Assembly (NCBI GenBank): GCA_963833575.1
Contig: CAWHXY010000003.1
Coordinates: 1 to 63,315, forward strand
DNA from: Candidatus Bathyarchaeota archaeon
Lineage (GTDB): Archaea > Thermoproteota > Bathyarchaeia > Bathyarchaeales > Bathycorpusculaceae
DNA: 63,315 bases
Direction: 5' to 3'
Positions 24,231 through 48,334 of the stretch are shown here, piece after piece. Each line of letters opens with the position of its first letter. Positions within the stretch are counted from its first letter, which is position 1. The position numbers were made by a program, and so were the translations under genes. The notes below the pieces were generated by a model. It was given only the letters and a program-made list of their open reading frames with translations, was not told the DNA's origin and ran no database searches.

Positions 24231-24275
24231 ACTACGTGTCTGAGCGATATGGCTGGAGTATGTTTCAACATGTTT

Positions 24276-24306: not shown

Positions 24307-24435
24307 CTCTAAAGGCAATGGGAAAATGAAAATACGATGTTTAGGAGCAACCTCAAGTTTCAGTCAAGCAATAATGAAAGAATGTTAAATGCCGCAAAAA
24401 TTAGACTGCGCAACGATTACTGAGTACAGTTGTGA

Positions 24436-26836: not shown

Positions 26837-26901
26837 CACTAAGAGCAATTCACATCTTGGAAAGAGCCACGTTCGAGAGGGCAAAGGTTAGAGTGAATAT
26901 A

Positions 26902-28926
26902 ATGACTGAGAAACCAAGAATAGGTGTCTACATTTGTCACTGTGGTTTGAACATTGCTGCTACAGTGGACGCGAAAGCAGTAGCCGAGTTTGCAAAAACT
27001 CTTCCGGATGTTATAGTATCTAAGGACTATAAGTACACATGTTCTGATCCTGGTCAAGAAATGATCAAAAAAGACGTAAAAGAACAAAAGCTCAACAGAG
27101 TAATAGTTGCTGCATGCTCGCCTCGAATGCATGAACCAACATATAGAAAATTAATGGAGCAGGCGGGGCTTAATCCATACCTTTTCGAAATGGTCAACAT
27201 AAGAGAGCAATCCTCGTGGGTTCACATGAAGGAACCAGCCAAGGCCACTCAAAAAGCCAAAGAATTGGTAAGCATGGCAGTTGCTAGAAGTCGGCTTCTA
27301 GAGCCCTTGGAAGTAAAAGAGATTCCCGCACTCAAATCAGTATTGATCATCGGTGGGGGTATAGCCGGTATTCAGTCAGCTCTTGACCTTGCAGAACAAG
27401 ATTACAAAGTATGTCTGGTCGAAAGACAGCCTACAATTGGTGGGCATATGGCTCAACTCGACAAAACCTTCCCAACCATGGATTGTTCGATTTGTATTTT
27501 TGCGCCGAAAATGGTGGATGTAGCCAAGAATCCAAATGTTACTCTTCTAACAAACAGCGAGGTTCAAGAGGTTTCAGGCGTTGCAGGAAACTTTCACGTA
27601 AAGGTACTGAAAAAGGCAAGATTCGTTAACGAGAAGAAATGTGTCGGTTGCGGAGTTTGTGCATCAAAATGTCCAGTCAAAACACCTAACGAGTTTGACA
27701 TGAATCTTGGAATGCGCAAAGCAGTCTACATACCGTTTCCTCAAGGAGTACCTGCAATTTACACAATTGACAAAGAACACTGTTTATATTTCACCAAAGG
27801 CGTCTGCAAAATCTGCGAAAAATTCTGCGAAGCCAAAGCAATTGACTATGAACAAAAAGACCAAATCGTCGAACTAGATGTAGGCGCTGTCATCGTTGCC
27901 ACAGGTTTTGAACCCTTCGACCCATCCACGCTAAAAGAGTTCCAATACGGAAAATACAAAAATGTTGTCACAAGCTTGGATTTCGAAAGATTGATCAGTG
28001 CATTTGGTCCGCAAGAAGGCAAACTTGTGCGTCCTTCCGATGGCAAAGAACCACACCGGATTGCTTTCATTCAATGCGTTGGCTCAAGAGATGAAAGAAC
28101 AGGAAATCTCTACTGCTCAAACATCTGTTGCATGAGCGCCATTAAACAAGCTGTTTTGATAAAGGAAAAGCACCCCGAATTTGAAGTTTATATTTTCTAT
28201 AATGATATTCGAGCTTTCGGAAAAGGATTTGAAGAATTCTACCAACGCGCGCGTGACCTTTGGGTTACCTTCGTGAAAGGAATCCCGGCTGAACTAACCG
28301 AAGATCCTGAAACGAAGAACTTGACCGTGAGAGTGGTGGATCTTGTTTTGGGAAAAATGGTGGAAGTAGACCTTGACATGGTAATTTTGTCTATAGGGAT
28401 GATTCCGCCAAAAGGAATTGCAGACCTGACACGCATTCTAAGAATTCCACGGGGCGCAGATGGGTTCCTGTTGGAGACTCATCCGAAGCTTAGACCTGTT
28501 GACACGCCCACAATGGGTGTATTTCTCGCTGGTGCCTGTCAAGGACCGAAGGATATACCTGCTAGTGTCGCGCAGGCGAAAGCAGCCGCCTCAGGCGTTG
28601 CATCATTACTATCAAAAGGAAAAATTAGAACTGAGTCTTCAATTGCAGTAGTGAATGAAGATTTTTGTAGCGGTTGTCGAGTTTGCGTTCCACTATGCAA
28701 GTACGATGCGATAAAAATGGAGGAGAAGAAAGGCAAGCAAGTGGCATCGGTATCTGAGGTAACCTGCATGGGCTGTGGTGTATGTGCTTCAGCGTGTCCA
28801 ACAAAATCGATATCCCTGCGGCATTTCACGGATCAACAAATATTGGCTCAGATAAAGGCATTGACACCGGAAGCATGCAATTGCACGGGTAGAACAGAAA
28901 CAATAAAGATTCAGGAGAAAACATAA
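26902..28926 (+). CDS. hdrA: heterodisulfide reductase subunit A (flavin-bifurcating)
   Basis: GVYICHCG, ACSPRMHE, GGGIAG, LDKTFPTMDCS, QCVGSRD..YCS..CC and ferredoxin motifs. Confidence 0.97.
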   Translation: MTEKPRIGVYICHCGLNIAATVDAKAVAEFAKTLPDVIVSKDYKYTCSDPGQEMIKKDVKEQKLNRVIVAACSPRMHEPTYRKLMEQAGLNPYLFEMVNIREQSSWVHMKEPAKATQKAKELVSMAVARSRLLEPLEVKEIPALKSVLIIGGGIAGIQSALDLAEQDYKVCLVERQPTIGGHMAQLDKTFPTMDCSICIFAPKMVDVAKNPNVTLLTNSEVQEVSGVAGNFHVKVLKKARFVNEKKCVGCGVCASKCPVKTPNEFDMNLGMRKAVYIPFPQGVPAIYTIDKEHCLYFTKGVCKICEKFCEAKAIDYEQKDQIVELDVGAVIVATGFEPFDPSTLKEFQYGKYKNVVTSLDFERLISAFGPQEGKLVRPSDGKEPHRIAFIQCVGSRDERTGNLYCSNICCMSAIKQAVLIKEKHPEFEVYIFYNDIRAFGKGFEEFYQRARDLWVTFVKGIPAELTEDPETKNLTVRVVDLVLGKMVEVDLDMVILSIGMIPPKGIADLTRILRIPRGADGFLLETHPKLRPVDTPTMGVFLAGACQGPKDIPASVAQAKAAASGVASLLSKGKIRTESSIAVVNEDFCSGCRVCVPLCKYDAIKMEEKKGKQVASVSEVTCMGCGVCASACPTKSISLRHFTDQQILAQIKALTPEACNCTGRTETIKIQEKT

Positions 28927-28928
28927 TC

Positions 28929-29441
28929 ATGCAATCAGTTGAGAATAGTTTTAAACTCGATCCATCGTTCAAGTACGAAGTTTCGGCGAGATCAGGCGGG
29001 GAAACGGTACGGCAGTGTTTTCAATGCGGGAAATGCGAAGCCACCTGCCCTATAGAACGCTTCAAGAATCAATATCGTCCAGCCCAAGTGATCAGAGCCG
29101 TTATGTTAGGTCTTCGCGAATTTGCACTGGATAGTCCTACGATTTGGCTATGTGCAACGTGCTATTCCTGCAGTGAGCGCTGCCCACAAGGAGTGCATTT
29201 TACCGACATAATGCGGGTTCTTCGGAACATGGCTGTTGAGCATGGGAAAACTAATCCATATTACAAGAAAGTCGCTGAAGCCATCGTTCAATACGGAAAA
29301 ACTTTCGATTCGCCAGACTTCATTAATGAAATGCGCGGAGACTTGGGTCTTCCTCCTGTCACATCCTTAGATAGGCAGGAGATCGCGAAAATCATAGACG
29401 AAGTAAAGGCTATGAAATCCAAGGAAAATCAAAACAAATAG
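28929..29441 (+). CDS. hdrC: heterodisulfide reductase subunit C
   Basis: CFQCGKCEATCP and WLCATCYSCSERCPQGV. Confidence 0.95.
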   Translation: MQSVENSFKLDPSFKYEVSARSGGETVRQCFQCGKCEATCPIERFKNQYRPAQVIRAVMLGLREFALDSPTIWLCATCYSCSERCPQGVHFTDIMRVLRNMAVEHGKTNPYYKKVAEAIVQYGKTFDSPDFINEMRGDLGLPPVTSLDRQEIAKIIDEVKAMKSKENQNK

Positions 29442-29449
29442 GTGATATT

Positions 29450-30313
29450 ATGAAGTACGTGTTTTTCCAAGGTTGCACAACCCCACAAAAAGAAAATGCT
29501 TACGAGCTTTCAATGAGAAAAGTAGCTTCAAAACTGGATATAGAATTAGTTGCTCTAGAAGAGCAAAACTGTTGTGGTTTCTTTGTGGAGCCAGTAGATC
29601 ACCTTAATGCCACAATAATGGCTGCAAGAGATCTCGCGTTATTTGATGCAAGCGGATTAAACGCCGTTACTCCATGCCCAGCGTGCTACGGACAACTAAA
29701 TCGGGTCAAGAAAGAGCTACTTGCAGATAAGAAATTGTACGACCAAGTAAACTGCATCCTGAAGGGAATCAACAGAAAGTTCACTGGTACATCTGAAATT
29801 AAGCACTTCATGAACGTTTTAATCGATGAAGTAGGAATGGAAAAAATTAAGGCTAGCATTGTCAAACCGCTTAACAATTTGAGAGTCGCGCCTCATTATG
29901 GCTGCCATATTTTAAAACCTTCATATGAGGTGAACACCGACAACCCTGAAGATCCACAACTACTTGACTCACTAATAGCAGTGACTGGAGCAAAAGTCGT
30001 TGATTATGGTGAGAAAAAGCTTTGTTGTGGTCAGTCTGCAGGCGGCGTCGACGAAGAATTATCTTTGAATCTCGGAAAGGCGAAACTGAAGAGCATCAAG
30101 AAGGCAGGGGCTGACGCCATGGTTACCGTATGTCCGGCTTGCCATATGCAATTTGATTTGGTTGCGGGTGCTAAGCTTCGGGATTTAGCAATTCCGGTGC
30201 TCCATTACACACAGCTGTTAGGGCTTGCTCAAGGTTTGAGTCCAAATGAACTTGGGTTGAGTGAAAACAGAGTTTCAACTGATAATATAGTAGAAATGAT
30301 AGGAGCAACCTGA
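29450..30313 (+). CDS. hdrB: heterodisulfide reductase subunit B
   Basis: two CCG domains: GC..CCG..CPAC and HYGCH..CCG..CPAC. Confidence 0.95.
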   Translation: MKYVFFQGCTTPQKENAYELSMRKVASKLDIELVALEEQNCCGFFVEPVDHLNATIMAARDLALFDASGLNAVTPCPACYGQLNRVKKELLADKKLYDQVNCILKGINRKFTGTSEIKHFMNVLIDEVGMEKIKASIVKPLNNLRVAPHYGCHILKPSYEVNTDNPEDPQLLDSLIAVTGAKVVDYGEKKLCCGQSAGGVDEELSLNLGKAKLKSIKKAGADAMVTVCPACHMQFDLVAGAKLRDLAIPVLHYTQLLGLAQGLSPNELGLSENRVSTDNIVEMIGAT

Positions 30314-30314
30314 A

Positions 30315-30767
30315 ATGACTGAGACCGAGTTGGCTTTCGAGCCTAAGATTGTTGGTTTTCTCTGCAATTGGTGCAGTTACGCCGGTGCAGACCTCGCAGG
30401 AATTAGCAGAATGCAGTACCCGACGAACGTACGAATAATCCGCGTTATGTGTAGCGGGCGGGTCGATCCAGCTTTTGTGCTTGAAGCTTTCAAAGGCGGT
30501 GCAGATGGAGTGTTGATAGCAGGATGCCATTTACCCTCTGACTGTCACTATATTTCTGGAAATTTCAAGGCACAGAGAAGAATCGCTCTTCTAAAGAAAG
30601 TTTTGGCTCAGTTTGGCTTAGAGCCTGAACGACTCAGAATAGAGTGGATTTCGGCTTCTGAAGGAGATCGATTTGCGAAGACTATTACGGAAATTACAGA
30701 ACAGATTAGGAAACTAGGTCCAAGTCCTCTAAAAAATGGCGGCGACTTAAATAAAAAGGTGAATTGA
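30315..30767 (+). CDS. mvhD: hydrogenase [2Fe-2S] subunit D
   Basis: FLCNWCSYAGAD, RVMCSGRV, GCH..DCHY. Confidence 0.96.
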   Translation: MTETELAFEPKIVGFLCNWCSYAGADLAGISRMQYPTNVRIIRVMCSGRVDPAFVLEAFKGGADGVLIAGCHLPSDCHYISGNFKAQRRIALLKKVLAQFGLEPERLRIEWISASEGDRFAKTITEITEQIRKLGPSPLKNGGDLNKKVN

Positions 30768-30769
30768 AA

Positions 30770-31753
30770 ATGAGTACACAAAAGCTCAAAGTGGCGTTTT
30801 ACTGGGCTGCGAGTTGTGGCGGATGCGAAATAGCAGTATTGGATATGAATGAAAAAATTCTTGATTTCTTGGGAATTGCTGACATTGTGTTTTGGCCAGT
30901 TGCATTGGACATTAAGTATAGAGCTGTGGAAGCGATGCCTGACAAATACATCGATGTTTGCTTTTTCAACGGTTCAATCCGTAGCGAAGAGCAAGAGCAC
31001 ATGGCCAAACTGATGAGACAGAAGTCTAAAACGCTTATAGCATTCGGTTCTTGCGCTCATGAAGGAGACATACCAGGTCTTGCTAACTTGCACACTCGGG
31101 AAGAAATCTTTGAAACAGTTTACCTAAAGAATCCATCCACATTAAATCAAACCGGTGTGGTGCCTTTAACCTCTTTTAAGGCAAAAGAGGGTAACTTAAA
31201 ACTCCCAGAACTTTATGATACCGTAAAGACCTTGGGCCAAACAGTTGATGTGGACTACTATCTGCCTGGTTGTCCTCCACCAGTTAAACTGATACTAAAA
31301 GCAGTTGATGCGATAGCGAAGAACCAATTGCCGCCCAAGGGTTCAGTCTTAGCTCCTTTGGAGTCAGTTTGTTTTGAATGTCCGCGGAAGAAAGAGAACA
31401 AGAGCATAGACAAGATTTATCGGGTTTACGAAAAAGCTCCCGAGCCGGAGAAGTGTCTGCTTGAGCAGGGAATACTCTGCATGGGTGTAGCTACCAGAAG
31501 TGGCTGTGGCGCTCAATGTTTAACTGTTGATATGCCTTGTACAGGATGCGGGGGTCCTTGTCCAAACGTGTTGGAGCAAGGAGCAGCGATGATGAGTGCA
31601 TTGGCATCTATCTTTGACTTGAACGATGAGCAGAAACATTACACTCAAGAAGACGTGGACAAGCTTATGGATCAAATCAAAGATCCACTTGGAACGTTCT
31701 ATATGTATTCGCTACCAAGCTCAATCTTAAGACGAAAGGTGACTAAAAAATGA
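30770..31753 (+). CDS. mvhG: group 3c [NiFe] hydrogenase small subunit
   Basis: SCGGC, FGSCA, LPGCPP, CLLEQG..CMG..TRSGC...CTGCGGP. Confidence 0.95.
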   Translation: MSTQKLKVAFYWAASCGGCEIAVLDMNEKILDFLGIADIVFWPVALDIKYRAVEAMPDKYIDVCFFNGSIRSEEQEHMAKLMRQKSKTLIAFGSCAHEGDIPGLANLHTREEIFETVYLKNPSTLNQTGVVPLTSFKAKEGNLKLPELYDTVKTLGQTVDVDYYLPGCPPPVKLILKAVDAIAKNQLPPKGSVLAPLESVCFECPRKKENKSIDKIYRVYEKAPEPEKCLLEQGILCMGVATRSGCGAQCLTVDMPCTGCGGPCPNVLEQGAAMMSALASIFDLNDEQKHYTQEDVDKLMDQIKDPLGTFYMYSLPSSILRRKVTKK

Positions 31754-33204
31754 AGGAAATAGTGATAGACCCAATCACACGACTTGAAGGCCACGGAAAC
31801 ATCTCGATATTCCTCGACGACTCAGGAGAAGTTGAAAACGCTTACCTCAAAATCCCAGAACTTCGCGGTTTTGAACGGTTCTGTGTTGGCAGAAGAGCTG
31901 AACTTATGCCCCAACTTACGACTAGAATCTGCGGAGTCTGCCCGGTTGCACATCATTTTGCCTCAGTGAAAGCACTAGATCAGGCTTTTAACGTAGAGCC
32001 GCCGTCTGCTGCAAAGAAACTTCGAGAACTAATGAACTCTGCATATTACATTTATGATCACACATTACATTTCTACTTCCTTGGCGGCCCAGATTTCATA
32101 GTTGGTCCTGATGCTCCGCCAGAGAAACGCAATATTCTCGGTGTAATTGAAAAGGCTGGCTTAGACGTGGCAAAGGAAGTAATCAAACACCGAGCTTACG
32201 GCCAGAAAATAACTGAAATCATCGGTGGAAAGGCAACTCATCCTGTATGCGGATTACCTGGTGGCATTTCTAAGGCACTAAGCGAGGAAAATAGGAAAGA
32301 AATCGAGCGCATGGCAGAATCTTCAATCGGCTTCGCTCAATTTACACTGAAGATATTCCATGACATTGTGCTTGGAAACAGCAAATATGTTGACATGATT
32401 AAGAGTGACGCGTTCACCGAGAAAACCTATTACATGGGTATGGTTGACAGCAACAACAAGGTTAATTTTTACGACGGAAAAATCCGCGTTGTAGACCCCT
32501 TAGGTCAGGAACTCTTGAAATTTGCTGGGGGCGATTATGCGAATCAAATAGGTGAACACGTTGAGGAGTGGTCATACGCTAAATTCCCGTACCTGAAAAA
32601 GGTTGGTTGGAAAGGGTTGACAGCTGGCCTTGGAAGCGGCATTTACCGAGTGGGTCCACTGGCGCGACTGAATGCTTCTAGCGGCATGGCTACTCCGTTA
32701 GCTCAATCAGAATACGAGGTCATGTATAAGACGTTGGGCGGTAAACCTGTTCACAGTACGCTTGCTTTCCACTGGGCTAGACTGATAGAGTTACTTTATG
32801 CTGCTGAGCGGACTTTGGAGCTATCTAAGGATTCCGAGATAACAAGCACTAATTTGCGTGCAAAGCCTGGTGAACCCGGAGAGGGCGTTGGTGTGGTAGA
32901 AGCTGCAAGAGGAACTTTGTTCCATCACTACATCTTAGACAAAGATGCGTTGATTAAAGGTGTGAACATGATTGTGGCGACAACCAACAACTACCCTGCC
33001 ATCTGCATGTCTATTCGTGATGCAGCAAAAGGGCTCATTCATAAGGGTAGCTACGACCAGGGTGTGCTGAATAAGATTGAGATGGCTTTTAGGGCATACG
33101 ACCCTTGTTTTGGTTGTGCGACGCATTTTGCTGTTGGGCAGATGCCTCTTGAAATCCGTGTTTATGACTCTGATCATAAAATCGTGAATCTCATCCGGCG
33201 ATAA
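31750..33204 (+). CDS. mvhA: group 3c [NiFe] hydrogenase large subunit
   Basis: TRLEGH, RICGVC (L1) and YDPCFGCATH (L2), with a cleavable C-terminal tail. Confidence 0.96.
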   Translation: MKEIVIDPITRLEGHGNISIFLDDSGEVENAYLKIPELRGFERFCVGRRAELMPQLTTRICGVCPVAHHFASVKALDQAFNVEPPSAAKKLRELMNSAYYIYDHTLHFYFLGGPDFIVGPDAPPEKRNILGVIEKAGLDVAKEVIKHRAYGQKITEIIGGKATHPVCGLPGGISKALSEENRKEIERMAESSIGFAQFTLKIFHDIVLGNSKYVDMIKSDAFTEKTYYMGMVDSNNKVNFYDGKIRVVDPLGQELLKFAGGDYANQIGEHVEEWSYAKFPYLKKVGWKGLTAGLGSGIYRVGPLARLNASSGMATPLAQSEYEVMYKTLGGKPVHSTLAFHWARLIELLYAAERTLELSKDSEITSTNLRAKPGEPGEGVGVVEAARGTLFHHYILDKDALIKGVNMIVATTNNYPAICMSIRDAAKGLIHKGSYDQGVLNKIEMAFRAYDPCFGCATHFAVGQMPLEIRVYDSDHKIVNLIRR

Positions 33205-33232
33205 AACAAGGCAAATATGAAGTGGACAAAAA

Positions 33233-33718
33233 ATGGATGCTAAAATTAGAAGTTCCGTTCCGAGCGATTTAAAATACCTTGCGGAAGTGAATTGGGACAA
33301 ACAAACCGGTGGAAACTGTCGTTTCGGAGATTCTGTTCAAGGCTTAAAGTACACTCTAAGTTTGGATAAGCCCACGGAATTTGGCGGAAAAGGAGATTTG
33401 CCAAGTCCTTGTTCAATTTTCTTTAATGGTTTTGGTGGCTGCATTCTAACGACGTTCTTGTACGCTAAAGAACGTATGCGTCTTGAAATAAGCGACTTAA
33501 AAGTGAGTATTGAGGCGGAAGTTAAATCATCTATGGTCGGTGGATACTCCTTAGATAATGTTAATGCAATAATTTACGTTACAACAAATAGCGAATTGAA
33601 CAAGGAGAAGGCTATTCGCTGCGGAAACTTTGTCAAGTCATACAGTTTCGCGATACGGGCCTTGCAAGCAGGGACAAAAATAGAATTGAAAACAGAAGTA
33701 ACAATCAAGCCCGACTGA
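33233..33718 (+). CDS. OsmC/Ohr-family protein
   Basis: DKPTEFGGKG..PSP...FGGC; the usual second Cys position reads Ser (VKSYSF). Confidence 0.85.
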   Translation: MDAKIRSSVPSDLKYLAEVNWDKQTGGNCRFGDSVQGLKYTLSLDKPTEFGGKGDLPSPCSIFFNGFGGCILTTFLYAKERMRLEISDLKVSIEAEVKSSMVGGYSLDNVNAIIYVTTNSELNKEKAIRCGNFVKSYSFAIRALQAGTKIELKTEVTIKPD

Positions 33719-33729
33719 AGAGAATAATT

Positions 33730-35388
33730 ATGGAGTTAGTAATTGGCCTAGATATAGGAACCAGCGGCGTTCGGCTGCAAGCTCTGGATGCCGACACCAA
33801 GAAAATAATATCGACAGCCATATCTCTGCATAATCCTCTTCCTGGAAGTAATGTTATTGACCATCTGCACTTTGCAGTCAAAGCAGGATCAGAGGTAGCT
33901 CAAGGCATCATTACAGATACCATAAATACTTTGCTAAACTCTTTGGAAATTGATCTTAAAGCTGTAAAACGCATGGCTCTATGCGGGAACCCAACGCAAA
34001 TGTCAATTTTTCAAGGCATGGAAGTTCGCGATCTAGTTTTTGGCGGAGACAATATGCTTCGAAGACTTGGCGTTAAAAGGCTCGATAGAAGAGTTACTGT
34101 TATGGATGCTGGCTCCTTAGGTTTAGCCATTAATCCTGAAGCAGAAGTATTTGTTCCCCCAACTATTCAACAGCAAATTGGCGCAGACGCATTAGCAATG
34201 ATCATCAAATCAGGAATTCTTGATCAAAACAAGTCGTGCATGGTTACTGATTACGGAACAAACGCTGAAATTGGACTTAAAGTCGGAGATACACTATATA
34301 CCGGTTCATGTGCAGCGGGACCTGCCATTGAAGGTGGCGAAATAGACAAAGGCGTATTAGCTTCGCCTGGGGCGATTTCCGATGTAACAGTGCTGGAAAA
34401 TGGCAACTGGAAAATGCAAGTCCTCAACGACGACATGATTTCTCAAGACAGCTTCACTGCAAATTCTCAGACGGGCGAAGTCCAAGAGAAATTACCGAAT
34501 TATTTTGAACCTAGAGGAATAACCGGGACAGGAACCATTGCAACAATGGCTACTGGCTTTGATTCTGGGTTGCTACAACGATTACCTCCATACATAAAGA
34601 CGCCAGATCATTGTCTTCACATCAGTAAAAACCAAAACATTGTTTTCACACCAAAAGACTACTTAAACTCGACTCGTTGCTTTGCCGCTTTCAAAGCTGG
34701 ACATACAGCATTAGTTGAAAAAAGCGGAGTAGCATTCGAAGACATTAAATCTATGTACCTTTGTGGGGCAAGCGGAACATACGTGGACGCTGTGAAAGCA
34801 CAAAAAATGGGTCTAGCCTTGCCTACAGTCAGCGACATATACCAAGTTGGAAACACATCACTTGCTATGGCAAACGACTGCGCTGCAGATCCAGAATGTC
34901 TTGACAAAATGCAGGAAATGGCTGACACAATGAAACCCACATATTTTGCCTTCATCAAAGACGAAACTTTCAAGAAAGCATACATTATTGAAATGGACCA
35001 TTGGGAACATGGTTTAACGCCTGAAAAAAGAATATTTGTCGCAAAAAGATTTAGGGTTCCAAACTATCCTGAGCAAAGAACCACGGCTAAGGTGCATAAG
35101 GTAGTTATCAGAGACATAGCTGACTTTGGACCAAAGGGTTTACACATAACCGAGCATGCCGGCATTATTTTAAATGCCACTTTTGAAGGATGCACAGGAT
35201 GTGGCGTATGCGAAAAGAATTGTATGTCACAGGCACTCAAGGTTGAAGAAAACGAGGGACAACACTTGATAAGAGTATCTAGTGAGAACTGCACTGGCCA
35301 AGTTTGCAGAAAATGTGAGTCAACCTGCCCTGCAAAAGTGTTTCGATTTGACGATTTAGAGTTTGCTCCAGGGAAGAAAGCGTGGTAA
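33730..35388 (+). CDS. ramA: ATP-dependent corrinoid reductive activase (RamA-type, ASKHA + C-terminal ferredoxin)
   Basis: GLDIGTSG, NPLPGSNVIDHLHFA, IGADALAM, TDYGTNAE, AAGPAIEG, GASGTYVD; two C-terminal 4Fe-4S motifs. Confidence 0.92.
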   Translation: MELVIGLDIGTSGVRLQALDADTKKIISTAISLHNPLPGSNVIDHLHFAVKAGSEVAQGIITDTINTLLNSLEIDLKAVKRMALCGNPTQMSIFQGMEVRDLVFGGDNMLRRLGVKRLDRRVTVMDAGSLGLAINPEAEVFVPPTIQQQIGADALAMIIKSGILDQNKSCMVTDYGTNAEIGLKVGDTLYTGSCAAGPAIEGGEIDKGVLASPGAISDVTVLENGNWKMQVLNDDMISQDSFTANSQTGEVQEKLPNYFEPRGITGTGTIATMATGFDSGLLQRLPPYIKTPDHCLHISKNQNIVFTPKDYLNSTRCFAAFKAGHTALVEKSGVAFEDIKSMYLCGASGTYVDAVKAQKMGLALPTVSDIYQVGNTSLAMANDCAADPECLDKMQEMADTMKPTYFAFIKDETFKKAYIIEMDHWEHGLTPEKRIFVAKRFRVPNYPEQRTTAKVHKVVIRDIADFGPKGLHITEHAGIILNATFEGCTGCGVCEKNCMSQALKVEENEGQHLIRVSSENCTGQVCRKCESTCPAKVFRFDDLEFAPGKKAW

Positions 35389-35438
35389 ATGAAGTAACGA
35401 AAGATATCTTTCATTGCTAAAGTGAGGGAAAAAAGAGA

Positions 35439-35687
35439 TTGAAAGAACTTGGAAAAGTCTACGGTTTAAACGGGAAGGAAATCAACATGTGCTATGGCAT
35501 TAACATAGCCACAAGCGTAATACCATCAGACAATTCCGCAACAATGAGCGGTGTGCGACTTTTTGAGGTAACAACTGATACAACAATATGTGACGGCTGC
35601 GCTGATAAAGGAAAATGCGTAATCGATAATGCCGAGATACTCAAAAAAACGCAAAGCTACCTTATCAAAAAAAAACTTTACCCCTAA
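35439..35687 (+). CDS. small Cys-containing hypothetical protein
   Basis: 82 aa with CDGC..GKC; inside the operon. Confidence 0.6.
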   Translation: MKELGKVYGLNGKEINMCYGINIATSVIPSDNSATMSGVRLFEVTTDTTICDGCADKGKCVIDNAEILKKTQSYLIKKKLYP

Positions 35688-35737: not shown

Positions 35738-36646
35738 TTGACAGAAAATCAATGCGACAACACCAGCGAGTTCAAAGAACAATTTGCTCGCCAACTAGCT
35801 TCTAGACCTTCTGAGGTAAAAATTGTTTTAGATGGGCAATACAAGAAAGCATATGAACTTTTGGATGATGCCGTTTCAGCAAGATTAACCCCAATAATTA
35901 TCGGTCCACCAGGTGTGGGTAAATCGCTTTTGGCCAGAAAATTTGCATATGATACTCAGCGTCCATTTTATGAATTATTTTTTGATGAACTCATGAGTCC
36001 AAGTCATCTCATAGGGACCTTTAACCCTGCCGTTCTAGTTAGCAAAGGCTACTGTATGGAGGCGTTCGAGCCCGGGCCACTATTGCTTGCGATGGTTGGC
36101 GGCGGAGTTTTTGTTGCACAAGAACTAAACAGGGCCTCTGAGTTTTGCCAAAATAGTTTCTTAGAGCCTCTTGAAGAGAAGACGCTGTATATTCCCAGAC
36201 TTGGCAAAATTAGGGCAAACGACAACTTCGTTTTCATAGCGGTAGCCAATCCCTACGAATTCTCTGGTGCTCACAGAATCTCTGAAGCTTTAAGGGACCG
36301 TCTTCATGTTTGGATAAGCCTATCCTATCCTAACAAAGAAACTGAACTCAAAATCATTGCTGCAAACACTCCAGAAAACAAGCTTGATCCTGAGACAATG
36401 CAGAAAATTTACAACATTATTGATCAGTCAAGGCAAAGCGAAGAATTCTCAAAGCTCGTTTCTGTGAGAGCTGGGATTTCGATTGCTCGAATAGCCTCGC
36501 GTTATGCCGAGATGGATCTCCTAACCGATTCGGTCCTTGTCGATATTGCATATCAGTCTCTTCTTGGATCCGTAACTGAACGTAACACCAGATGGAATGA
36601 AAGTAAACTCAAGGATTTAATAAGGAAGAGTTTAACATGCAAGTAG
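35738..36646 (+). CDS. MoxR/CoxD-type AAA+ ATPase
   Basis: GPPGVGKS, GPLLLAM, QELNR (Walker B D>Q), ANP, SEALRDR. Confidence 0.9.
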   Translation: MTENQCDNTSEFKEQFARQLASRPSEVKIVLDGQYKKAYELLDDAVSARLTPIIIGPPGVGKSLLARKFAYDTQRPFYELFFDELMSPSHLIGTFNPAVLVSKGYCMEAFEPGPLLLAMVGGGVFVAQELNRASEFCQNSFLEPLEEKTLYIPRLGKIRANDNFVFIAVANPYEFSGAHRISEALRDRLHVWISLSYPNKETELKIIAANTPENKLDPETMQKIYNIIDQSRQSEEFSKLVSVRAGISIARIASRYAEMDLLTDSVLVDIAYQSLLGSVTERNTRWNESKLKDLIRKSLTCK

Positions 36647-36921
36647 ACATACATTCTTTAATCACGCAATTTTCCGCAGATTTTGTGGAGAGCTTTCGTG
36701 AGCTCGAGAAGGTCAAGGAAAACGCTGCTCCAAGTACCAGGCAATCCATTGCTATTGCCCGACTTCTTTTAGCAAAATACCTCAAAAAGCGTGAACTAAT
36801 CGAAGCTGACTTTGTAGATGCTGCAATTGTGACATCTTACCCCCGAGTTCAAAAAATTGCTGAAGAAATTGCCAAAGATACAATTAGAAAATTGATCAAT
36901 CATAATACATCCAATATGTGA
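36637..36921 (+). CDS. small helical protein resembling a stand-alone AAA lid
   Basis: PSTRQSIAIARLL..DFVDAAIVTS repeats in the N-terminus of the next gene. Confidence 0.75.
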   Translation: MQVDIHSLITQFSADFVESFRELEKVKENAAPSTRQSIAIARLLLAKYLKKRELIEADFVDAAIVTSYPRVQKIAEEIAKDTIRKLINHNTSNM

Positions 36922-36930: not shown

Positions 36931-38106
36931 TTGAGCTTAAACACAATTGTTGATCCAATAAAATTTGCCGATGAATTCTGCGGGGCGATTCGCAGTTCAC
37001 CGACTGTTCCTGAGGCGTTCAAACCGAGTTCACGACAACCAATTGCGATTACAAAATTATTAATAGCAAAGCAAATGCGAAAAAAGAATACTTTGAACCA
37101 ACAAGATTACGTTGAGGCTGCAGTTGTAACATCACATTTAGAAATAAGATGTGAAGCTGAATCCTTAGCAGTTCAGACTTATAGTTACCTCGCTTGTCCG
37201 CGAGAAGAAAAGTTGAAGGAGATATTGGTTGAGCTTGTCGAAGCCGTAGCTGGTAAAGCTAGCGACGAAAAAGTTCTCAACGATTGGTTCAAAAATCGAG
37301 ATGAGTACGCCGAAGATGAAAAGAAGGCTTTGTTAGCTAGAGCAAAACAAGCTTTGGCTAGAACAGGCATGTATTATGCTCGTCACTTCATCAATAATTT
37401 CTATATTTCGGGTACCGGTCCAGAAAAGGGCTACTCAATTCGTCAGTTCAAACAAGGTAATGATGACCCTTCAGCGATTGATTTTGAGCTAACTCTGGAA
37501 AACGCCATAGCCGACGGAAAAAATCTGTGTCAGCTCTCATACGAAGACTTCCTTACAAGGGAAGTCAGACGTCAACGGAGAAATGTCTTATATCTTCAAG
37601 ATATGAGTGCCAGTTTTGATTATCGCGTACTTGTTTCCTGCGCAGTCTGCGGATCGATTCTTGTGCATGGTTTGCCAAGAGACGATCAGAGTGCTATTTC
37701 TCTTTTTTCAGATAAACTGGAAATAATCAAAAGATTTAGTGCTAAAGAAGATATGATGAAAATAACTGATCAGCTTCTATCAATGGAGTCTTCGGGAGGC
37801 ACAAATCTTCACCAAGCGATCAAATGGGCGAGAACAGAATTCAGTCAAGGGAGCCGTAATCAAGCCAACTTTTGTCTTATTTTTTCTGACATGGGCTTCG
37901 AAACAGAAGATGTCGAGTTGGCACTTGACGAAATCAATGAAATGCAAAATATGGATGTTCGAATAACCTTTCTCAGGTTTAAACCATTCGAACATTATTA
38001 CAAAGCTGGAAACAAACTGCTTGCTGATTCAGGGTGTCGAATGATTACGGTTGACAATATTTTGGATTTTCCAGAATTGATGAGCAGAATAATCAGCCCT
38101 GCTTGA
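36931..38106 (+). CDS. VWA/CoxE-like protein
   Basis: IDFELTLEN, MIDAS LQDMSAS, GGTNL, IFSD. Confidence 0.88.
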   Translation: MSLNTIVDPIKFADEFCGAIRSSPTVPEAFKPSSRQPIAITKLLIAKQMRKKNTLNQQDYVEAAVVTSHLEIRCEAESLAVQTYSYLACPREEKLKEILVELVEAVAGKASDEKVLNDWFKNRDEYAEDEKKALLARAKQALARTGMYYARHFINNFYISGTGPEKGYSIRQFKQGNDDPSAIDFELTLENAIADGKNLCQLSYEDFLTREVRRQRRNVLYLQDMSASFDYRVLVSCAVCGSILVHGLPRDDQSAISLFSDKLEIIKRFSAKEDMMKITDQLLSMESSGGTNLHQAIKWARTEFSQGSRNQANFCLIFSDMGFETEDVELALDEINEMQNMDVRITFLRFKPFEHYYKAGNKLLADSGCRMITVDNILDFPELMSRIISPA

Positions 38107-38169: not shown

Positions 38170-40392
38170 ATGAGAGATATGGTTAAAATTGCCTTCTATG
38201 GTAAAGGGGGTATAGGAAAATCTACTGCAATCTCAAATGTTTCTGCAGCCTTAGCGGAGAAAGGATACAAAGTACTGCAGATAGGGTGCGACCCCAAACA
38301 CGATTCTACACGATTATTGCTAGGCGGTTACCAGCAAGCTACTGTTCTTGAACAATTAAATCATTCTGATACAGTAAAACTTGCTGATGTTATGTTGACT
38401 GGGTACAAAGGCACCAAATGCATTGAAGCTGGCGGTCCAGAACCTGGTGTTGGCTGTGCCGGAAGAGGCATTATCCAAATGATTAATCTGCTCAATAATC
38501 AAGGCTTAAACATGTCTGATTATAATTATGTGTTTTTTGATGTTTTGGGCGATGTGGTCTGTGGCGGTTTTGCCGTTCCAATGCGGGAAGGTTTTGCTCA
38601 ATCCATATACATTGTAACTTCAGGCGAATTAGCTTCTTTATACGCTGCGAATAATATTGCTAAAGGTTTACGAAGTCATTCTTCAGTCAAAGGCAAACTA
38701 GCTGGCATTATTGGAAATGAAAGGGGTACCAAAAAAGAACGTGAACTAATTGCGGCTTTTGCTCAGAAACTTGGGACAGAAATGGTTGCTTTTATCCCTC
38801 GAAGCGAAATTGTTCAACAGGCTGAGCTTGAATCGCAAACCGTTATTGAATACGCGCCTAATTCTGAGCTGGCAGCCGTTTATCGGTCACTAGCTCAGAA
38901 AATCGAACAAAACAAAACTTCTGTTGTTCCAACGCCTATGGAGGATTCAGGGCTTGAAGATTTCATCAATGAATTCTGCTACAACAAAAAACCTGCAAAA
39001 AAAATTTTTCATAATAATTATAACATTAAAAAAAATTTGAAAGCAACTGATTGCCAAACATACGATCCATTGAAAGACGCTAAAGAAATCAGTATTGACC
39101 GAGCCAGCGCAAAGTTTAAACCTCTAAAACCGAGAGCGCTTCTTTATGGCTGCTCATTAGCTGGAGCTTATGCTGTTGTCAGCCAAATCGAGGATGCAGT
39201 AGCCGTTATGGATTCTCCTAGGGCTTGTGCATTCAATACTTTTTACACTACGTTGAATACTCCTCAACCATCTGAAAAAACGATCCTGCCGAACTTAGTT
39301 TGCACTGATGTGCGCGAGAAAGAAGTGATTTTTGGTGCTGAAAAAAAACTAAAACAAGTAATCTTGGCAGCGAACAAACGTGTCTCGCCAGCTGTCACCT
39401 TTGTGATTACTTCTTGTCCCTCAGGCATAATCGGAGAAGACTCAGCCCGCATAATTGAGCAGCTTCGAGAAGGAGGCTTGGACGTTGTTGATCTTAAAAG
39501 CGACGGTGTTATGAGCGGTGACTTCAATGCAGGTGTCCAAAATTCTTACAAAATTATTGCTGAACATTTTATCAACAGAAACTTAACTCCTAGCGGCGAC
39601 ATGGTAAACATCATCGGTGAACAAGGGCTTTCCACGGTTGCCGATAAGAACTTTAACGAATTAACAAACGTTCTTAACGCTCTTGAGCTTAAGATTAACT
39701 GCAGGTTTATCAGAAAAACAACTGCGCAATCGATCAAGAACTTTAAATTAGCAACCGTAAATATTCCCGCGACCAACGAAATAGTCGTTCAAAATCTTTT
39801 AGATTACTTTGATAGGGATTTCAACGTTCCATACTTGAAGGCTCCACTTCCCTTGGGTTTTGAGCAGACAGTAGAGTTTACAAGGGCATTGGGAAAGATG
39901 TTCCAGCGGGAAAGCGAAGCTGAAACGTTAATCAATCAAGCCAGACTTAAGTATGATGCTCAGATCGCTCATTACCAACCATTTTGGGAAGGTAAAAAAG
40001 TAATGATCTTCTCCTTCGTCATATACATAGACTGGTTAATTGCGACCTTCCTTGATTTGCATGCAAACGTGCAAAAGGTGTGTGTATCAAAATTTTATTA
40101 TGAGACTGAGAACTTTTACTCGCGATTTACGGATAAAGTGCAAGTGGTCAACGATTACCCTTTTGATAACCGAGAAAAAGACATCTTGGAACATCAGCCA
40201 GACATAGTTCTGTACAATTTCATGCCCAAAAACCTGACAAATACCAACATCATTCACGATGTCTTCCCGTTCTGTCCATCCTACGGCTTTTTGAGTGGAA
40301 TGGAATACATCCGCAAATGGACAACGAGACTTAAAGTACCCTTTAGTGAAGGCTGGAAATATGACCGAAAACTTTTCAATCTCCATGCATAG
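38170..40392 (+). CDS. nitrogenase-like (group IV) NifH + NifD/E-like fusion
   Basis: YGKGGIGKS, GCDPKHDS, GPEPGVGCAGRG and DVVCGGF, then GCSLAGA, SPRAC and TSCPSGIIGED. Confidence 0.92.
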   Translation: MRDMVKIAFYGKGGIGKSTAISNVSAALAEKGYKVLQIGCDPKHDSTRLLLGGYQQATVLEQLNHSDTVKLADVMLTGYKGTKCIEAGGPEPGVGCAGRGIIQMINLLNNQGLNMSDYNYVFFDVLGDVVCGGFAVPMREGFAQSIYIVTSGELASLYAANNIAKGLRSHSSVKGKLAGIIGNERGTKKERELIAAFAQKLGTEMVAFIPRSEIVQQAELESQTVIEYAPNSELAAVYRSLAQKIEQNKTSVVPTPMEDSGLEDFINEFCYNKKPAKKIFHNNYNIKKNLKATDCQTYDPLKDAKEISIDRASAKFKPLKPRALLYGCSLAGAYAVVSQIEDAVAVMDSPRACAFNTFYTTLNTPQPSEKTILPNLVCTDVREKEVIFGAEKKLKQVILAANKRVSPAVTFVITSCPSGIIGEDSARIIEQLREGGLDVVDLKSDGVMSGDFNAGVQNSYKIIAEHFINRNLTPSGDMVNIIGEQGLSTVADKNFNELTNVLNALELKINCRFIRKTTAQSIKNFKLATVNIPATNEIVVQNLLDYFDRDFNVPYLKAPLPLGFEQTVEFTRALGKMFQRESEAETLINQARLKYDAQIAHYQPFWEGKKVMIFSFVIYIDWLIATFLDLHANVQKVCVSKFYYETENFYSRFTDKVQVVNDYPFDNREKDILEHQPDIVLYNFMPKNLTNTNIIHDVFPFCPSYGFLSGMEYIRKWTTRLKVPFSEGWKYDRKLFNLHA

Positions 40393-41689
40393 ACCTGACT
40401 CTCTCGCTGGCGCAGTTACAGCGTTTGAGGGCATAAAGAACTCTGCCGCTTTAGTTAATGGTCCGAATGGCTGCAGAACATATCTTTCTTATCTTACAAA
40501 TATTCAGGATGCCCAGACTACACCGCTTGGATTGGATAAATATTCAACTGACATCTATTTTCAGCGAGTGCCAAGTACCTCTCTGGATGAATATGATTAT
40601 GTTAACAGTGCAGAAGAAAAGCTTACAACCGCAATTAATTGCACATCAAGTTTCGATTATGACCTCGTAGGTATAATCAACTCCCCTGGAACTTCTCTAA
40701 TCGGGGACGATCTTATTGCTATCCTAGAAAGATCTTCTCCCAAATACAAGACCGTTCCGATTGAAAGCACCTGTTTCACGGGAACCTTTGTTGATGGCTT
40801 TAAGAGAGCATCGAATGAAATACTGAAAGCAGTAATAGAAAATGATGGCCCAAAAATCCCCAAAAGTGTGAACTTGATCGGAGCGAACATTTTTCAGTAC
40901 AACTGGGAAAGCGACATTGCCGAAATCAAAAGAACACTTGAACTAATGGGAATAAAAGTCATCTCCAAAATATGCGCTGGAGAAATCCTTGAGAATCTCA
41001 AAATGGCAAATAGAGCTGAGCTTAACGTTGTCCTATACGAGGAATATGGCAACACAATAGCGAAGCAACTTGAACATGACTATGGCACCCCATACATGGG
41101 CATTAAGGAGTCTTCACCTTACGGTTTTGTTTCTTCTGAGATCTGGTTCGGAAAGATTGCAGATTTTTTCAATTTGCCTAAAACAATGATTAATGAGGAA
41201 TCTACTCAGGTGAAGATGAAGTGTTATCGTACACTTGATCGGATATCTGTTTTGATGGGTGGTCTGCGAGGTATAACGTTTGGTTACTTTGGAGACTCCT
41301 CAACAGCTGTACCATTGATATCTTTCCTTCACAAATACTTGGGGTTGTACCCTGATATCATTGGCTTAAGAGAAGTTGGAGCCGAGAACCAGAAACTGCT
41401 AAACCAATACATTGCTGAAAACTCTTTAGATACAACCATACTTTATAGTCCAGATCAATACGACATACGCGAAGCGCTGTCCAACAAGAAGCCTGACTTG
41501 ATTTATGGAAGCAATGTTGAAGAGCGCGTGTCAAAGGGGATTCCTGACGCTAAATTCGGTTTCATCCCGTTCGCATATCCATATTATGATAAAGTCAGTT
41601 TGACTTTTCGACCTTTGATCGGCTTCAACGGTGTATTAACACTCCTTGAGGATACATTAAACACTCTTAAAGTGATCCAACGGCCATAA
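40385..41689 (+). CDS. nitrogenase component-1-like subunit (NifK/BchB-like partner)
   Basis: PDSLAGA, NGPNGC, NSPGTSLIGDD, KSVNLIG, PLIGFNG; ATG 40385 overlaps the upstream stop. Confidence 0.88.
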   Translation: MHRPDSLAGAVTAFEGIKNSAALVNGPNGCRTYLSYLTNIQDAQTTPLGLDKYSTDIYFQRVPSTSLDEYDYVNSAEEKLTTAINCTSSFDYDLVGIINSPGTSLIGDDLIAILERSSPKYKTVPIESTCFTGTFVDGFKRASNEILKAVIENDGPKIPKSVNLIGANIFQYNWESDIAEIKRTLELMGIKVISKICAGEILENLKMANRAELNVVLYEEYGNTIAKQLEHDYGTPYMGIKESSPYGFVSSEIWFGKIADFFNLPKTMINEESTQVKMKCYRTLDRISVLMGGLRGITFGYFGDSSTAVPLISFLHKYLGLYPDIIGLREVGAENQKLLNQYIAENSLDTTILYSPDQYDIREALSNKKPDLIYGSNVEERVSKGIPDAKFGFIPFAYPYYDKVSLTFRPLIGFNGVLTLLEDTLNTLKVIQRP

Positions 41690-43688: not shown

Positions 43689-44018
43689 CTATTCCTTTAT
43701 ATTTTCAGTTACGAATTCTATTTTTACTTCTCTCTTAATTGCAAACTTAATTTCTGCTTCGCATGCTTTTATGATTCCAATGGGGATGGCGCATGCAGAA
43801 TGCGGTATTGATTCAGCCGCTTTTTGCAATATGAAGTTTGCTTTAGGTAGGTTTACAGCATCATACATTTTTACCGTCTTCACAGCATCTCTAAAATGAC
43901 TCAAGTTCGGGCACGCGCTTGCGATATTTATTTCAATTTCTTGATTCTGTTTCTTTTCAGCCTTTACAACGGTTACGAATTTGCATATTCCTGGATCAAT
44001 TCTGACCTTAGTTACCAT
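43689..44018 (-). CDS. small Cys/His protein (DUF6951-like), paralog of 26215..26523
   Basis: PGIC...SACP.L...HSACAIP.G..KACE. Confidence 0.78.
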   Translation of the reverse strand: MVTKVRIDPGICKFVTVVKAEKKQNQEIEINIASACPNLSHFRDAVKTVKMYDAVNLPKANFILQKAAESIPHSACAIPIGIIKACEAEIKFAIKREVKIEFVTENIKE

Positions 44019-48274: not shown

Positions 48275-48334
48275 TCTGTCAGGTGTTGGACTGATTTGTA
48301 CTGTGTATTCGAAAATTTCTTGGTGGCTAAATAA

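Follow-up and report, generated by a model that had tools for sequence, protein, structure and literature searches.

A NifH-NifD-like fusion protein and its NifK-like partner in a Bathyarchaeota genome belong to a widespread nitrogenase-like clade with a corrinoid-related gene context

What might be reduced by a nitrogenase-like enzyme whose Fe protein is fused to one of the two component-1 subunits and whose genes follow those for Hdr, Mvh, and the corrinoid-protein activase RamA? The question is raised by a stretch of 63,315 nucleotides of a Candidatus Bathyarchaeota archaeon genome (GenBank assembly GCA_963833575.1, contig CAWHXY010000003.1, positions 1 to 63,315 of the forward strand), which was analyzed as a whole and is called the window below. 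Its plus strand carries a fusion gene of 740 codons (38170..40392) encoding a NifH-like Fe-protein domain, a linker, and a NifD/E-like component-1 domain (PF00142 plus PF00148), followed by a gene for a NifK/N-like partner of 442 amino acids (P0123; 40361..41689, plus strand). We report here that the feature is part of a fused clade within the nitrogenase superfamily that is widespread and uncharacterised and had been noticed before. What is new is a functional lead that is specific and can be tested, namely cobalamin-riboswitch control and corrinoid-related neighbours of the fused genes. With moderate confidence we propose that the fusion protein and its partner form an ATP-driven reductase that would act on a corrinoid or a closely related metallo-tetrapyrrole; the corrinoid substrate is suggested because of the family-wide gene context.

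The NifH-like domain of the fusion protein comprises residues 6 to 269 (38185..38976, plus strand; PF00142 Fer4_NifH, E = 2.2e-106). The Walker A motif (residues 11 to 18, 38200-38223) and both ligand cysteines of the [4Fe-4S] cluster, C96 (38455-38457) and C131 (38560-38562), are present on the same strand, showing that the Fe-protein half is intact. Both cysteine motifs were kept in all 116 fused homologues and the Walker A pattern in 112 of them. A linker of ~58 residues between the two Pfam envelopes (38977..39150, plus strand) leads to the NifD/E-like domain, which covers residues 328 to 721 (39151..40332, plus strand; PF00148 Oxidored_nitro, E = 2.4e-62) and is referred to as the D-half. 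The ATG of the fusion gene is preceded by AAGGA. For the partner (PF00148, E = 1.9e-62) the longest reading frame opens with a GTG at 40295, while the 442-residue form starts at the ATG at 40361, giving a 32-nt overlap with the fusion gene up to its stop codon. The same short overlap was seen in relatives, for example in locus L033 (9974 versus 10005). The fusion protein has the NifH-type P-loop ATPase with two cluster cysteines that is characteristic of the nitrogenase superfamily, and together with the partner it provides the two paralogous Oxidored_nitro subunits, one of the alpha type and one of the beta type.

The metal sites of the component-1 part were located by alignment with proteobacterial NifD and NifK sequences taken from related genomes. 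In these references the sites were set by spacing (NifD: C62 in RGCAY, C88 in GPVGC, C154 in SECP, C275 in HCYRS, and H442 in HSWDY; NifK: C70 in AKACQP, C95 in GSQGC, and C153 in TTCM), and the columns were scored over 116 fused homologues for the D-half and over 63 homologues for the partner. The motifs GC, PRAC, and TSC of the D-half represent the P-cluster positions C62, C88, and C154 of NifD (C328, 39151-39153; C353, 39226-39228; C416, 39415-39417; plus strand), and each of these three columns contains cysteine in 116/116 sequences. The ligands of the iron-molybdenum cofactor (FeMo-co) are missing: the C275 site is T535 in the fusion protein and lacks cysteine in all 116 homologues (Y 28, T 17, A 13, S 13, N 11, and others), and the H442 site is a gap in every one of them. 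In the partner, the C70 site of NifK is occupied by D13 (40397-40399), with Asp in 59 of the 63 homologues, a gap in three, and Gln in one. The C95 site is C38 (40472-40474; Cys in 63/63), and the C153 site falls on S108/P109 (Ser in 36, Pro in 23, Cys in 3, and Thr in 1). Compared to the six P-cluster cysteines of nitrogenase, four are present here.

These assignments agree with the first-pass annotation of the locus, made from the nucleotide sequence alone, which had described an intact Fe-protein half, three cluster cysteines and no FeMo-co ligands in the fused component-1 half, and an Asp at the first site, a single Cys, and an SP motif at the third site of the partner. One refinement is that the Asp of the partner lies at the C70 site and is distinct from the Asp ligand site of BchB, which corresponds to the NifK C95 column (PMC13474568); in this column both BchB references have Asp and the partner has Cys. 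Three cysteines from the D-half and one from the K-type partner, with a conserved Asp nearby, fit a single [4Fe-4S] cluster at the subunit interface and not an 8Fe P-cluster. Judged from their sequences, the fusion protein and its partner are an ATP-dependent nitrogenase-like reductase whose ligand residues suit one simple cluster at the interface.

Neither of the two proteins reached the cut-off of a curated NCBIfam equivalog model. The fusion protein scored 375 bits with the nifH model (cut-off, 394), 364 with CfbC (402), 220 with BchL (345), 114 with NifE (505), and 36 with CfbD (268), and its NifH half scored 178 bits with BchX. The corresponding values of the partner were 100 for NifE (505), 93 for BchB (490), and 26 for CfbD (268). 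Scores for the component-1 models of dark-operative protochlorophyllide oxidoreductase (DPOR) and chlorophyllide oxidoreductase (COR) were far below their cut-offs, with 72 to 93 of 490 bits for BchB, 47 of 420 for BchN, and 62 of 529 for BchZ. When the PDB was searched by sequence, the NifH half matched NifH with an E value of 2e-89; the MarD and MarK proteins of R. rubrum, identified as those of the structures 9D9U and 9FMG by PMC13474568, were matched at E values of 1e-19 and 1e-17, no closer than NifD. No Mar model was among the NCBIfam matches of the fusion protein and the partner.

Within the 2.75-Mb genome, which is 94% complete, the fusion and partner genes were the only PF00148 matches, and the fusion gene was the single strong match to PF00142. 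No NifB was detected in this genome with TIGR01290, and the combination of NifB and NifE/N that accompanies Mo, V, and Fe nitrogenases was not found. The earlier statement that nifB, nifE, and nifN are lacking was thereby confirmed, as far as TIGR01290 and PF00148 cover it; no individual searches were made for Cfb genes besides CfbD or for bch genes that PF00148 does not cover. The ligand sites, the equivalog scores, and the absence of NifB are all in line with the proposal of a nitrogenase-like reductase that is driven by ATP, has a simple cluster, and is not a nitrogenase. The first-pass annotation had further argued that the lack of a NifB or MarB homologue speaks against a Mar-type enzyme, and the missing TIGR01290 match and the missing L-cluster cysteines support this argument.

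The phylogenetic position of the two component-1 proteins was analyzed in a quick IQ-TREE run (57 rows, 431 columns, midpoint root). References were NifD, NifK, NifE, NifN, BchB, BchZ, and CfbD sequences from five fusion-bearing genomes, labelled by NCBIfam, to which BchN and BchY sequences labelled by position and four further CfbD sequences were added; the tree contains no Mar, Isr, Nfa, or Group VI references. The 14 D-halves formed one clade with a support of 98 in the Shimodaira-Hasegawa-like approximate likelihood ratio test. Its sister was an unfused D-like protein of Desulfosarcina, and NifD plus NifE were in turn sister to the two (support, 99). The partners and the matching unfused K-like protein formed a clade of their own (98), apart from NifK/N, BchB/Z, BchN/Y, and CfbD. 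In all five methanogen-type genomes examined, a true CfbD above the cut-off was present alongside the fusion. A grouping with CfbCD or another characterised clade, which the first-pass annotation had considered, was not observed with the references used, as the sequences were placed outside CfbD, NifD/E/K/N, and Bch. On the basis of these comparisons, the fused family belongs to none of the characterised families compared (nitrogenase, NifEN, CfbCD, and DPOR/COR) and is not close to Mar.

The unfused D-like/K-like pair that is sister to the fused clade is located at positions 153 to 2808 of locus L112 in the genome of Desulfosarcina variabilis (G002). It has cysteine at all six P-cluster sites and no cysteine at the C275 site. 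Its use as a Mar-like stand-in was considered and rejected, because this pair is as far from the MarDK proteins in the PDB as the fusion protein and the partner are.

The folds of the partner and the D-half were predicted with confidence (predicted local distance difference test [pLDDT] values of 85 and 81, respectively); the D-half model begins at residue 296, and its initial 31 residues have a pLDDT below 50. Fold comparison did not discriminate between families: the partner matched BchB, NifK, AnfK, and MarK about equally, with template modelling (TM) scores of 0.76 to 0.82, and the D-half matched NifD, NifE, and MarD about equally.

When one genome per species was scanned with the partner alignment, 292 relatives were found, and locus counts refer to the best 80. 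One of these loci, L006, is a near-copy of the window from a 94%-identical metagenome-assembled genome, and the family counts use the other 79. In tblastn searches over the 80 loci, the partner was detected in all 80, the D-half in 79, and the NifH half in 74. A fused open reading frame (ORF) of at least 680 codons was present in 71 of the 80, and the remainder were mostly cut by contig ends. The pair occurs in Bathyarchaeia, Clostridia, Desulfobacterota, Methanolobus, and Treponema. Archaeal loci in this set include those of Bathyarchaeia, among them termite-gut Bathycorpusculum, and of Methanolobus species. Bacterial loci include those of Clostridium lundense, C. tetanomorphum, Christensenella tenuis, Formimonas warabiya, and Treponema, and of the Desulfobacterota Desulfosarcina variabilis and Desulfatibacillum alkenivorans. 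Among the best 120 fusion homologues listed, all of which have the Pfam pair PF00142 plus PF00148, named carriers were Bathyarchaeia, Acidobacteria, Desulfocicer vacuolatum, and Treponema primitia. Relatives of the partner among 1.84 billion cluster representatives (50%-identity clusters) numbered 95 at E values of at most 1e-30 and 415 at E values of at most 1e-10. In 18 of 116 full-length homologues (P0061-P0114; locus L074), a second NifH-like domain is present, giving NifH-NifH-D triple fusions of 1010 to 1106 amino acids, and for P0068 this architecture was confirmed by NCBIfam. The triple fusions are an argument for Fe-protein domains that dimerise and serve their own D and K subunits.

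Fusions of this kind have been noted before. Dos Santos et al. (2012, BMC Genomics 13:162, PMC3464626) mentioned a nifH-nifD/E-like fusion accompanied by a nifK/N-like gene, gave the fusions as "data not shown" and dropped them from the phylogeny. The genes described here show the features of that family, with an in-frame nifH-nifD/E-like fusion, a nifK/N-like gene next to it, and no FeMo-co ligands. In the 2026 review by North and Shafaat (PMC13474568) the words "fused" and "fusion" do not occur, and we found no paper in the open-access literature or on bioRxiv in which cobalamin riboswitches or corrinoid salvage are connected with an enzyme of the nitrogenase-like type.

To describe the gene context of the family, ORFs were called in all 80 loci and clustered, and Pfam was run on the cluster representatives. 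An importer consisting of Peripla_BP_2, FecCD, and an ATP-binding cassette (ABC) ATPase was present in 25 of the 79 loci, including 14 of the 16 loci from Bathyarchaeia, and was usually located directly upstream of the fusion. Other neighbours were CobN (8 loci), ChlD-like AAA+/VWA proteins (6), BtuR/CobA (6), CbiZ (4), CbiK (3), an energy-coupling factor (ECF)/CbiQ/DUF4430 set (3), and TonB-dependent receptors (3). Several of these genes are combined in the Methanolobus locus L072, where the order is CbiZ, one unassigned gene, ChlD, binding protein, FecCD, ABC ATPase, fusion, partner, CbiK, and CobN.

A regulatory signal was found in bacteria. Of the 58 bacterial loci, 53 (892 kb) were scanned with Rfam, and 20 of these contained cobalamin riboswitches, 33 in total. 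The resulting density of ~37 per Mb, compared to 2.7 per Mb in five of the same genomes (79 riboswitches in 29.4 Mb), corresponds to a ~14-fold enrichment over a background whose genomes were chosen among the riboswitch-positive loci and include those loci. In L033 and L063 the fusion is immediately preceded by a riboswitch; in L032 and L047 (via a TonB receptor), in L042 (with an ECF-type transporter), and in L036 and L030, a riboswitch heads the same-strand run leading into the fusion. In L049 it is followed by BtuR, CobN, ABC, ABC2, a radical SAM protein, and the fusion. No cobalamin riboswitch was detected in the seven archaeal loci scanned or in the window, where Rfam gave no match.

From the surroundings of the fusion gene, the first-pass annotation had suggested either the cleavage of an S-alkyl-lipoyl thioether or the reduction of a corrinoid or tetrapyrrole. 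The second suggestion was strengthened by the strong association with corrinoid genes across the family, as seen in the cobalamin riboswitches, the BtuFCD-type importers, CobN, the ChlD-like proteins, BtuR, CbiZ, and CbiK. The first one did not find such backing, because no lipoyl, Hdr, Mvh, or RamA gene lies within 10 kb in the 79 loci. The observation of the fusion and its partner was confirmed, and its interpretation was supported in part.

In six loci (L026-L028, L059, L033, and L024), genes for riboswitch-controlled surface proteins of 1758 to 2469 amino acids with DUF4430 and S-layer homology domains were found downstream of the pair. These large proteins are probably cell-surface corrinoid-binding proteins.

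The proposed mechanism is as follows. The fusion protein and its partner would assemble into a partly fused two-component reductase, (NifH-D)2(K)2, in which two Fe-protein domains pair up, with a [4Fe-4S] cluster between them, and receive electrons from ferredoxin. ATP hydrolysis would push single electrons to one interface [4Fe-4S] cluster with three Cys ligands from D and one from K, an arrangement resembling that of DPOR but with cysteine ligands only and the conserved Asp nearby. From there, electrons would pass to an organic or metallo-organic substrate bound in a cavity equivalent to the FeMo-co site of nitrogenase or the protochlorophyllide site of DPOR. This substrate would be a corrinoid or a closely related metallo-tetrapyrrole, either imported or made by the cell. 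As the most likely reaction we envisage the one-electron reduction of Co(II) to Co(I) at very low potential, which would precede adenosylation by BtuR/CobA and CbiZ-type salvage and would make the enzyme an anaerobic, ATP-driven counterpart of CobR. The main alternative reaction would be a reduction of the corrin macrocycle itself. In the organism studied here, MvhADG-HdrABC would be the probable source of the reduced ferredoxin, both for RamA and for the fused Fe-protein domain.

The latter idea is based on the genes preceding the fusion. HdrA, HdrC, HdrB, MvhD, MvhG, MvhA, an OsmC-like protein, RamA, and an ORF of 82 codons were assigned with Pfam to 26857..35687 on the plus strand. RamA, an ATP-dependent reductive activase of corrinoid proteins, is encoded at 33730-35388 (plus strand; TIGR04270, 599 bits; cut-off, 500) and belongs to the same co-directional block as the fusion. 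It is followed on the plus strand by genes for a MoxR-type AAA+ protein (35738-36646; AAA_5, E = 4e-20), a protein of 94 amino acids (36637-36921) resembling the N-terminus of the next gene product, and a VWA protein (36931-38106; weak matches to VWA_2 and VWA). The plus-strand run is unbroken from HdrA (26857) to the end of the partner gene (41689), and the gaps from MvhA onward measure 10 to 64 nt, which agrees with the apparent hdr-mvh-ramA operon proposed in the first-pass annotation. The MoxR/VWA pair may be a chaperone or a chelatase-type motor; with no CobN found in its genome, the organism is unlikely to have a complete class I chelatase. The similarity of the 94-residue protein to the VWA protein covers the first ~78 residues of the latter (39 to 41% identity in related contigs), and the 94-residue protein thus looks like a small duplicated domain.

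The arrangement was found again in L134, a diverged metagenome contig, which keeps the order MvhG, MvhA, one further gene, OsmC, RamA, 82-codon ORF, MoxR, 94-codon ORF, VWA, fusion, and partner. The identities to the proteins of the window were 56% for the D-half, 61% for the partner, 61% for the VWA protein, 84% for RamA, and 88% for MvhA, and the preserved order despite the divergence of the nitrogenase-like genes shows that the arrangement is conserved within this sublineage. MoxR, the 94-codon ORF, and VWA have the same order in L133 and L134. Among the 80 loci, L006 was the only one with Hdr, Mvh, RamA, OsmC, or VWA genes within 10 kb. A VWA protein was found in 1/80 loci, a MoxR-like gene in 4/80, and lipoyl genes within 10 kb in 0/80. 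In genomes of the same genus, no RamA homologue was detected (0/40, E value of at most 1e-50), and a partner homologue with 43 to 49% identity was present in 4 of 24.

Upstream of the hdr block, the window contains an archaeal-type set of lipoate assembly genes (18894-25506). It comprises an LplA-like catalytic domain (18894), LipS1 (19683; 225 bits, cut-off 230), LipS2 (20724; 312 bits), a 326-residue protein without assignment, a GcvH-like protein (22726), a second LipS1 (23217; 256 bits), and an LplA with a C-terminal LplB-like part (24436). Four corrinoid cassettes are located at 6811-9285, 11470-14478, 16568-18552, and 56881-59426. Each of them encodes a B12-binding corrinoid protein of ~230 to 245 amino acids and a protein of ~420 amino acids with a weak match to URO-D (MT2-type methyltransferase). 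A GcvH-like lipoyl carrier is present in all cassettes except that at 16568-18552, TrmB regulators are located near three of them, and SCP2 genes occur in two. The cassettes look like corrinoid methyltransferase systems that would use a lipoyl-protein thiol as partner. The sole RamA match of the genome and most of its corrinoid proteins, as identified with those of the window as queries, lie on the contig of the window. A second Hdr-like set at 46161-51732 comprises an HdrB-like protein with CCG domains, an HdrC-like protein, a 203-residue protein without assignment, a polyferredoxin, and an HdrA-MvhD fusion of 818 amino acids.

Further observations were made in the window. Two adjacent ORFs of 306 and 233 codons (44037-45669, minus strand) read like the N- and C-terminal halves of a thermosome subunit; this paralogue looks split here, and the matching region of L133 gave a single alignment of 522 residues. 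The block from hdr to the thermosome ORFs is bracketed by DUF6951 proteins at 26215-26523 (plus strand) and 43689-44018 (minus strand). An IS110 transposase fragment is located at 56274-56576. For the last cassette, the window (57226-59396) and contig C6 of the same genome assembly (G000, 348996-351166) gave identical tblastn identities, and the ends of the window and of contig C6 probably overlap or represent a repeat.

With respect to corrinoid metabolism, neither CbiC nor CobN was found in the genome, and CbiB was present twice. The absence of CbiC together with two copies of CbiB suggests that the organism is probably a corrin salvager. A corrinoid salvage locus (L140) was found on contig C7 (555000-568000), where CbiZ is divergent from Peripla_BP_2, FecCD, and a 451-residue ABC ATPase whose C-terminus carries a long extension; a radical SAM/SPASM protein and a DUF2284 protein are also encoded there. 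This importer, which CbiZ adjoins, is orthologous (48 to 53% identity) to the importer located beside the fusion in L008.

Several points weigh against a corrinoid as the substrate, in addition to the choice of background genomes in the riboswitch comparison and the set of references in the tree described above. In 29 of the 58 bacterial loci, of which five were unscanned for riboswitches, neither a riboswitch nor one of the listed families was present within 10 kb. In Bathyarchaeia the importer is the only recurrent neighbour, and importers of this type also carry siderophores and haem; in the genome studied here, it is encoded on another contig (C7) than the fusion. CbiC was present in all five other fusion-bearing genomes tested, so that the gene context cannot separate salvage from de novo synthesis. 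Neither a CobA/BtuR-type nor a PduO-type adenosyltransferase was found in the genome, which weakens for this organism the version in which Co(I) is formed for adenosylation. Finally, the Hdr, Mvh, and lipoyl carrier genes nearby fit thiol or thioether chemistry equally well. Such chemistry is the essence of an alternative that we consider unlikely, a lineage-specific thioether (C-S) reductase. The cassettes would methylate the dihydrolipoyl thiol, the enzyme would cleave S-methyl-lipoyl in the manner of Mar or Isr with release of methane, and Hdr-Mvh would recycle the carrier. The four B12-binding/URO-D-like cassettes, mostly with a GcvH-like protein, the presence of LipS1, LipS2, LplA, and GcvH in the window and of Hdr-Mvh directly upstream, and the MvhG-RamA-MoxR-VWA-fusion synteny kept in L134 at just 56 to 61% identity of the nitrogenase-like proteins are consistent with such a pathway, and Isr, another C-S-cleaving relative, is also without the nitrogenase ligand set (PMC13474568). 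However, the ligand set is identical to that of the rest of the corrinoid-associated family, there is neither a NifB/MarB-type gene nor an L-cluster Cys, and the similarity to MarD and MarK is no closer than that to NifD. As lipoyl, Hdr, Mvh, and RamA genes are found near none of the 79 loci other than L006, the synteny within this sublineage (L133, L134) is what the thioether idea comes down to. Its bolder form, again drawn from local synteny, is that in this sublineage the enzyme would release methane from S-methyl-lipoyl without methyl-coenzyme M reductase, and we regard it as improbable.

The prominence of the importer, the commonest neighbour of the family (25/79 loci and 14/16 in Bathyarchaeia, with TonB receptors in three loci), could also mean that the imported chelate is not a corrinoid but, for example, a ferric siderophore or haem, from which the enzyme would release the metal by reduction in concert with the FecCD-type importer; Dos Santos et al. 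(PMC3464626) described nitrogenase-like genes beside ABC transporters and suggested metal transport. Yet the regulatory signal, where it is seen, is the cobalamin riboswitch (20/53 loci), it is accompanied by the corrinoid-specific CbiZ, BtuR, CobN, CbiK, and DUF4430/ECF genes, and in the organism's own genome the importer is paired with CbiZ, which makes this reading rather improbable. A similarly low probability is assigned to a reductase of a non-corrinoid tetrapyrrole, which, like DPOR, COR, and CfbCD, would reduce a ring, in this case in an unknown cofactor pathway, perhaps together with CobN/ChlD-type chelatases. The 3+1 layout of the cluster ligands, as in DPOR, the presence of CobN, ChlD-like, and CbiK genes in 8, 6, and 3 loci, and the MoxR and VWA genes directly upstream in the window are compatible with it, but riboswitches for B12, CbiZ, and BtuR point specifically to cobamides, CobN and CbiC were not found in the organism's own genome, and the broad occurrence of the family in ordinary anaerobes argues against an exotic cofactor. 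Least probable in our view is a NifEN-like scaffold or maturase that would assemble or insert a metal cluster with the chaperone help of MoxR/VWA. Pairs of MoxR and VWA proteins are known as maturation chaperones of metallo-enzymes, the D-half is sister to NifD plus NifE, and its best fold matches include NifEN (TM score, 0.71 to 0.74). Against this role, the genome contains neither NifB nor another nitrogenase-like acceptor, and the adjacency of MoxR/VWA is restricted to this sublineage.

The favoured reading, an ATP-driven reductase acting on a corrinoid or a related metallo-tetrapyrrole, can tentatively be extended. The family might be an unrecognised corrinoid reductase that is riboswitch-repressed in bacteria and provides either the missing anaerobic route to Co(I), equivalent to CobR, or a new step at the macrocycle; in the archaeon studied here, it might be wired to Mvh-Hdr bifurcation and RamA and supply the corrinoid methyltransferases. 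The functions of uncharacterised nitrogenase-like clades are regarded as one of the greatest challenges of the field, with gene context having been of little help so far (PMC13474568). The fused clade is large, and anaerobes that carry it are in culture, among them Clostridium tetanomorphum, Desulfosarcina variabilis, Desulfatibacillum alkenivorans, Methanolobus, and Treponema primitia. Its gene context, with cobalamin-riboswitch control and neighbours for corrinoid uptake and salvage, offers a specific lead that can be tested. If the proposal is true, the clade would represent a new enzyme class in anaerobic B12 metabolism, and it would provide natural fusions of Fe protein and component 1, including covalent Fe-protein dimers, for studies of electron gating.

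With regard to function, the closest equivalents of the proposed enzyme are CobR, the cob(II)yrinic acid a,c-diamide reductase, and the corrinoid activases RACo and RamA, whose task, the formation of a Co(I) corrinoid at very low potential (with ATP for RamA), is also the one proposed for the fused enzyme. They belong to unrelated protein families, and the functional equivalence is suggested by gene context only. In the aerobic pathway the order is CobNST-CobR-CobO, and the neighbours CobN and BtuR of the fused family parallel this order.

The fusions noted by Dos Santos et al. (PMC3464626) share with the family described here the architecture, the hosts (Archaea, Firmicutes, and Deltaproteobacteria), the absence of FeMo-co ligands, and the frequent ABC-transporter neighbours; their article differs in proposing neither a function nor a link to B12. 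Group VI from Elusimicrobia (Meheust et al., bioRxiv 10.1101/765248) resembles the fused family in that NifB and the FeMo-co ligands are missing, no more than four of the six P-cluster cysteines are kept, and a role with tetrapyrroles has been proposed. Its NifH proteins branch beside BchL/BchX and are ~40% identical to NifH, whereas the NifH half studied here scored 375 bits with nifH and 220 bits with BchL. Group VI is not described there as fused and has radical SAM neighbours.

MarBHDK (PDB 9D9U and 9FMG) is likewise a reductase on the NifD/E side, and MarK is the best PDB sequence match of the partner (E = 1.2e-17). Mar contains P-type and L-type clusters and requires MarB or NifB (PMC13474568), whereas the fused family has four of the six P-cluster cysteines, no L-cluster cysteine, no NifB, and a corrinoid rather than a sulfur gene context. 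CfbCD resembles the fused family as a nitrogenase-like enzyme that contains only [4Fe-4S] clusters and acts on a metallo-tetrapyrrole, and the NifH half reached 364 bits with the CfbC model. However, CfbD is a homodimer without a K-type partner, which the fused family has, the CfbD model gave 36 and 26 bits at a cut-off of 268, the two families form separate clades, and both systems coexist in methanogens.

DPOR (BchL/BchNB or ChlL/ChlNB) differs in that its Fe protein is a separate subunit, whereas that of the fused family is covalently attached and closer in sequence to NifH and CfbC than to BchL. All scores with Bch equivalog models were far below the cut-offs, and the fused family forms a separate clade. 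The fourth ligand, an Asp in BchB, is replaced by Cys in the fused family, whose own Asp is located at the NifK C70 site. At the same time, both systems have an ATP-driven Fe protein, the interface [4Fe-4S] cluster predicted for the fused family would, like that of DPOR, be bound by three Cys of the N/D-type subunit and a single residue of the B/K-type subunit, and the best fold match of the partner is BchB (3aer_D, TM score of 0.77 to 0.82). The substrate of DPOR is a tetrapyrrole, as we favour for the fused family.

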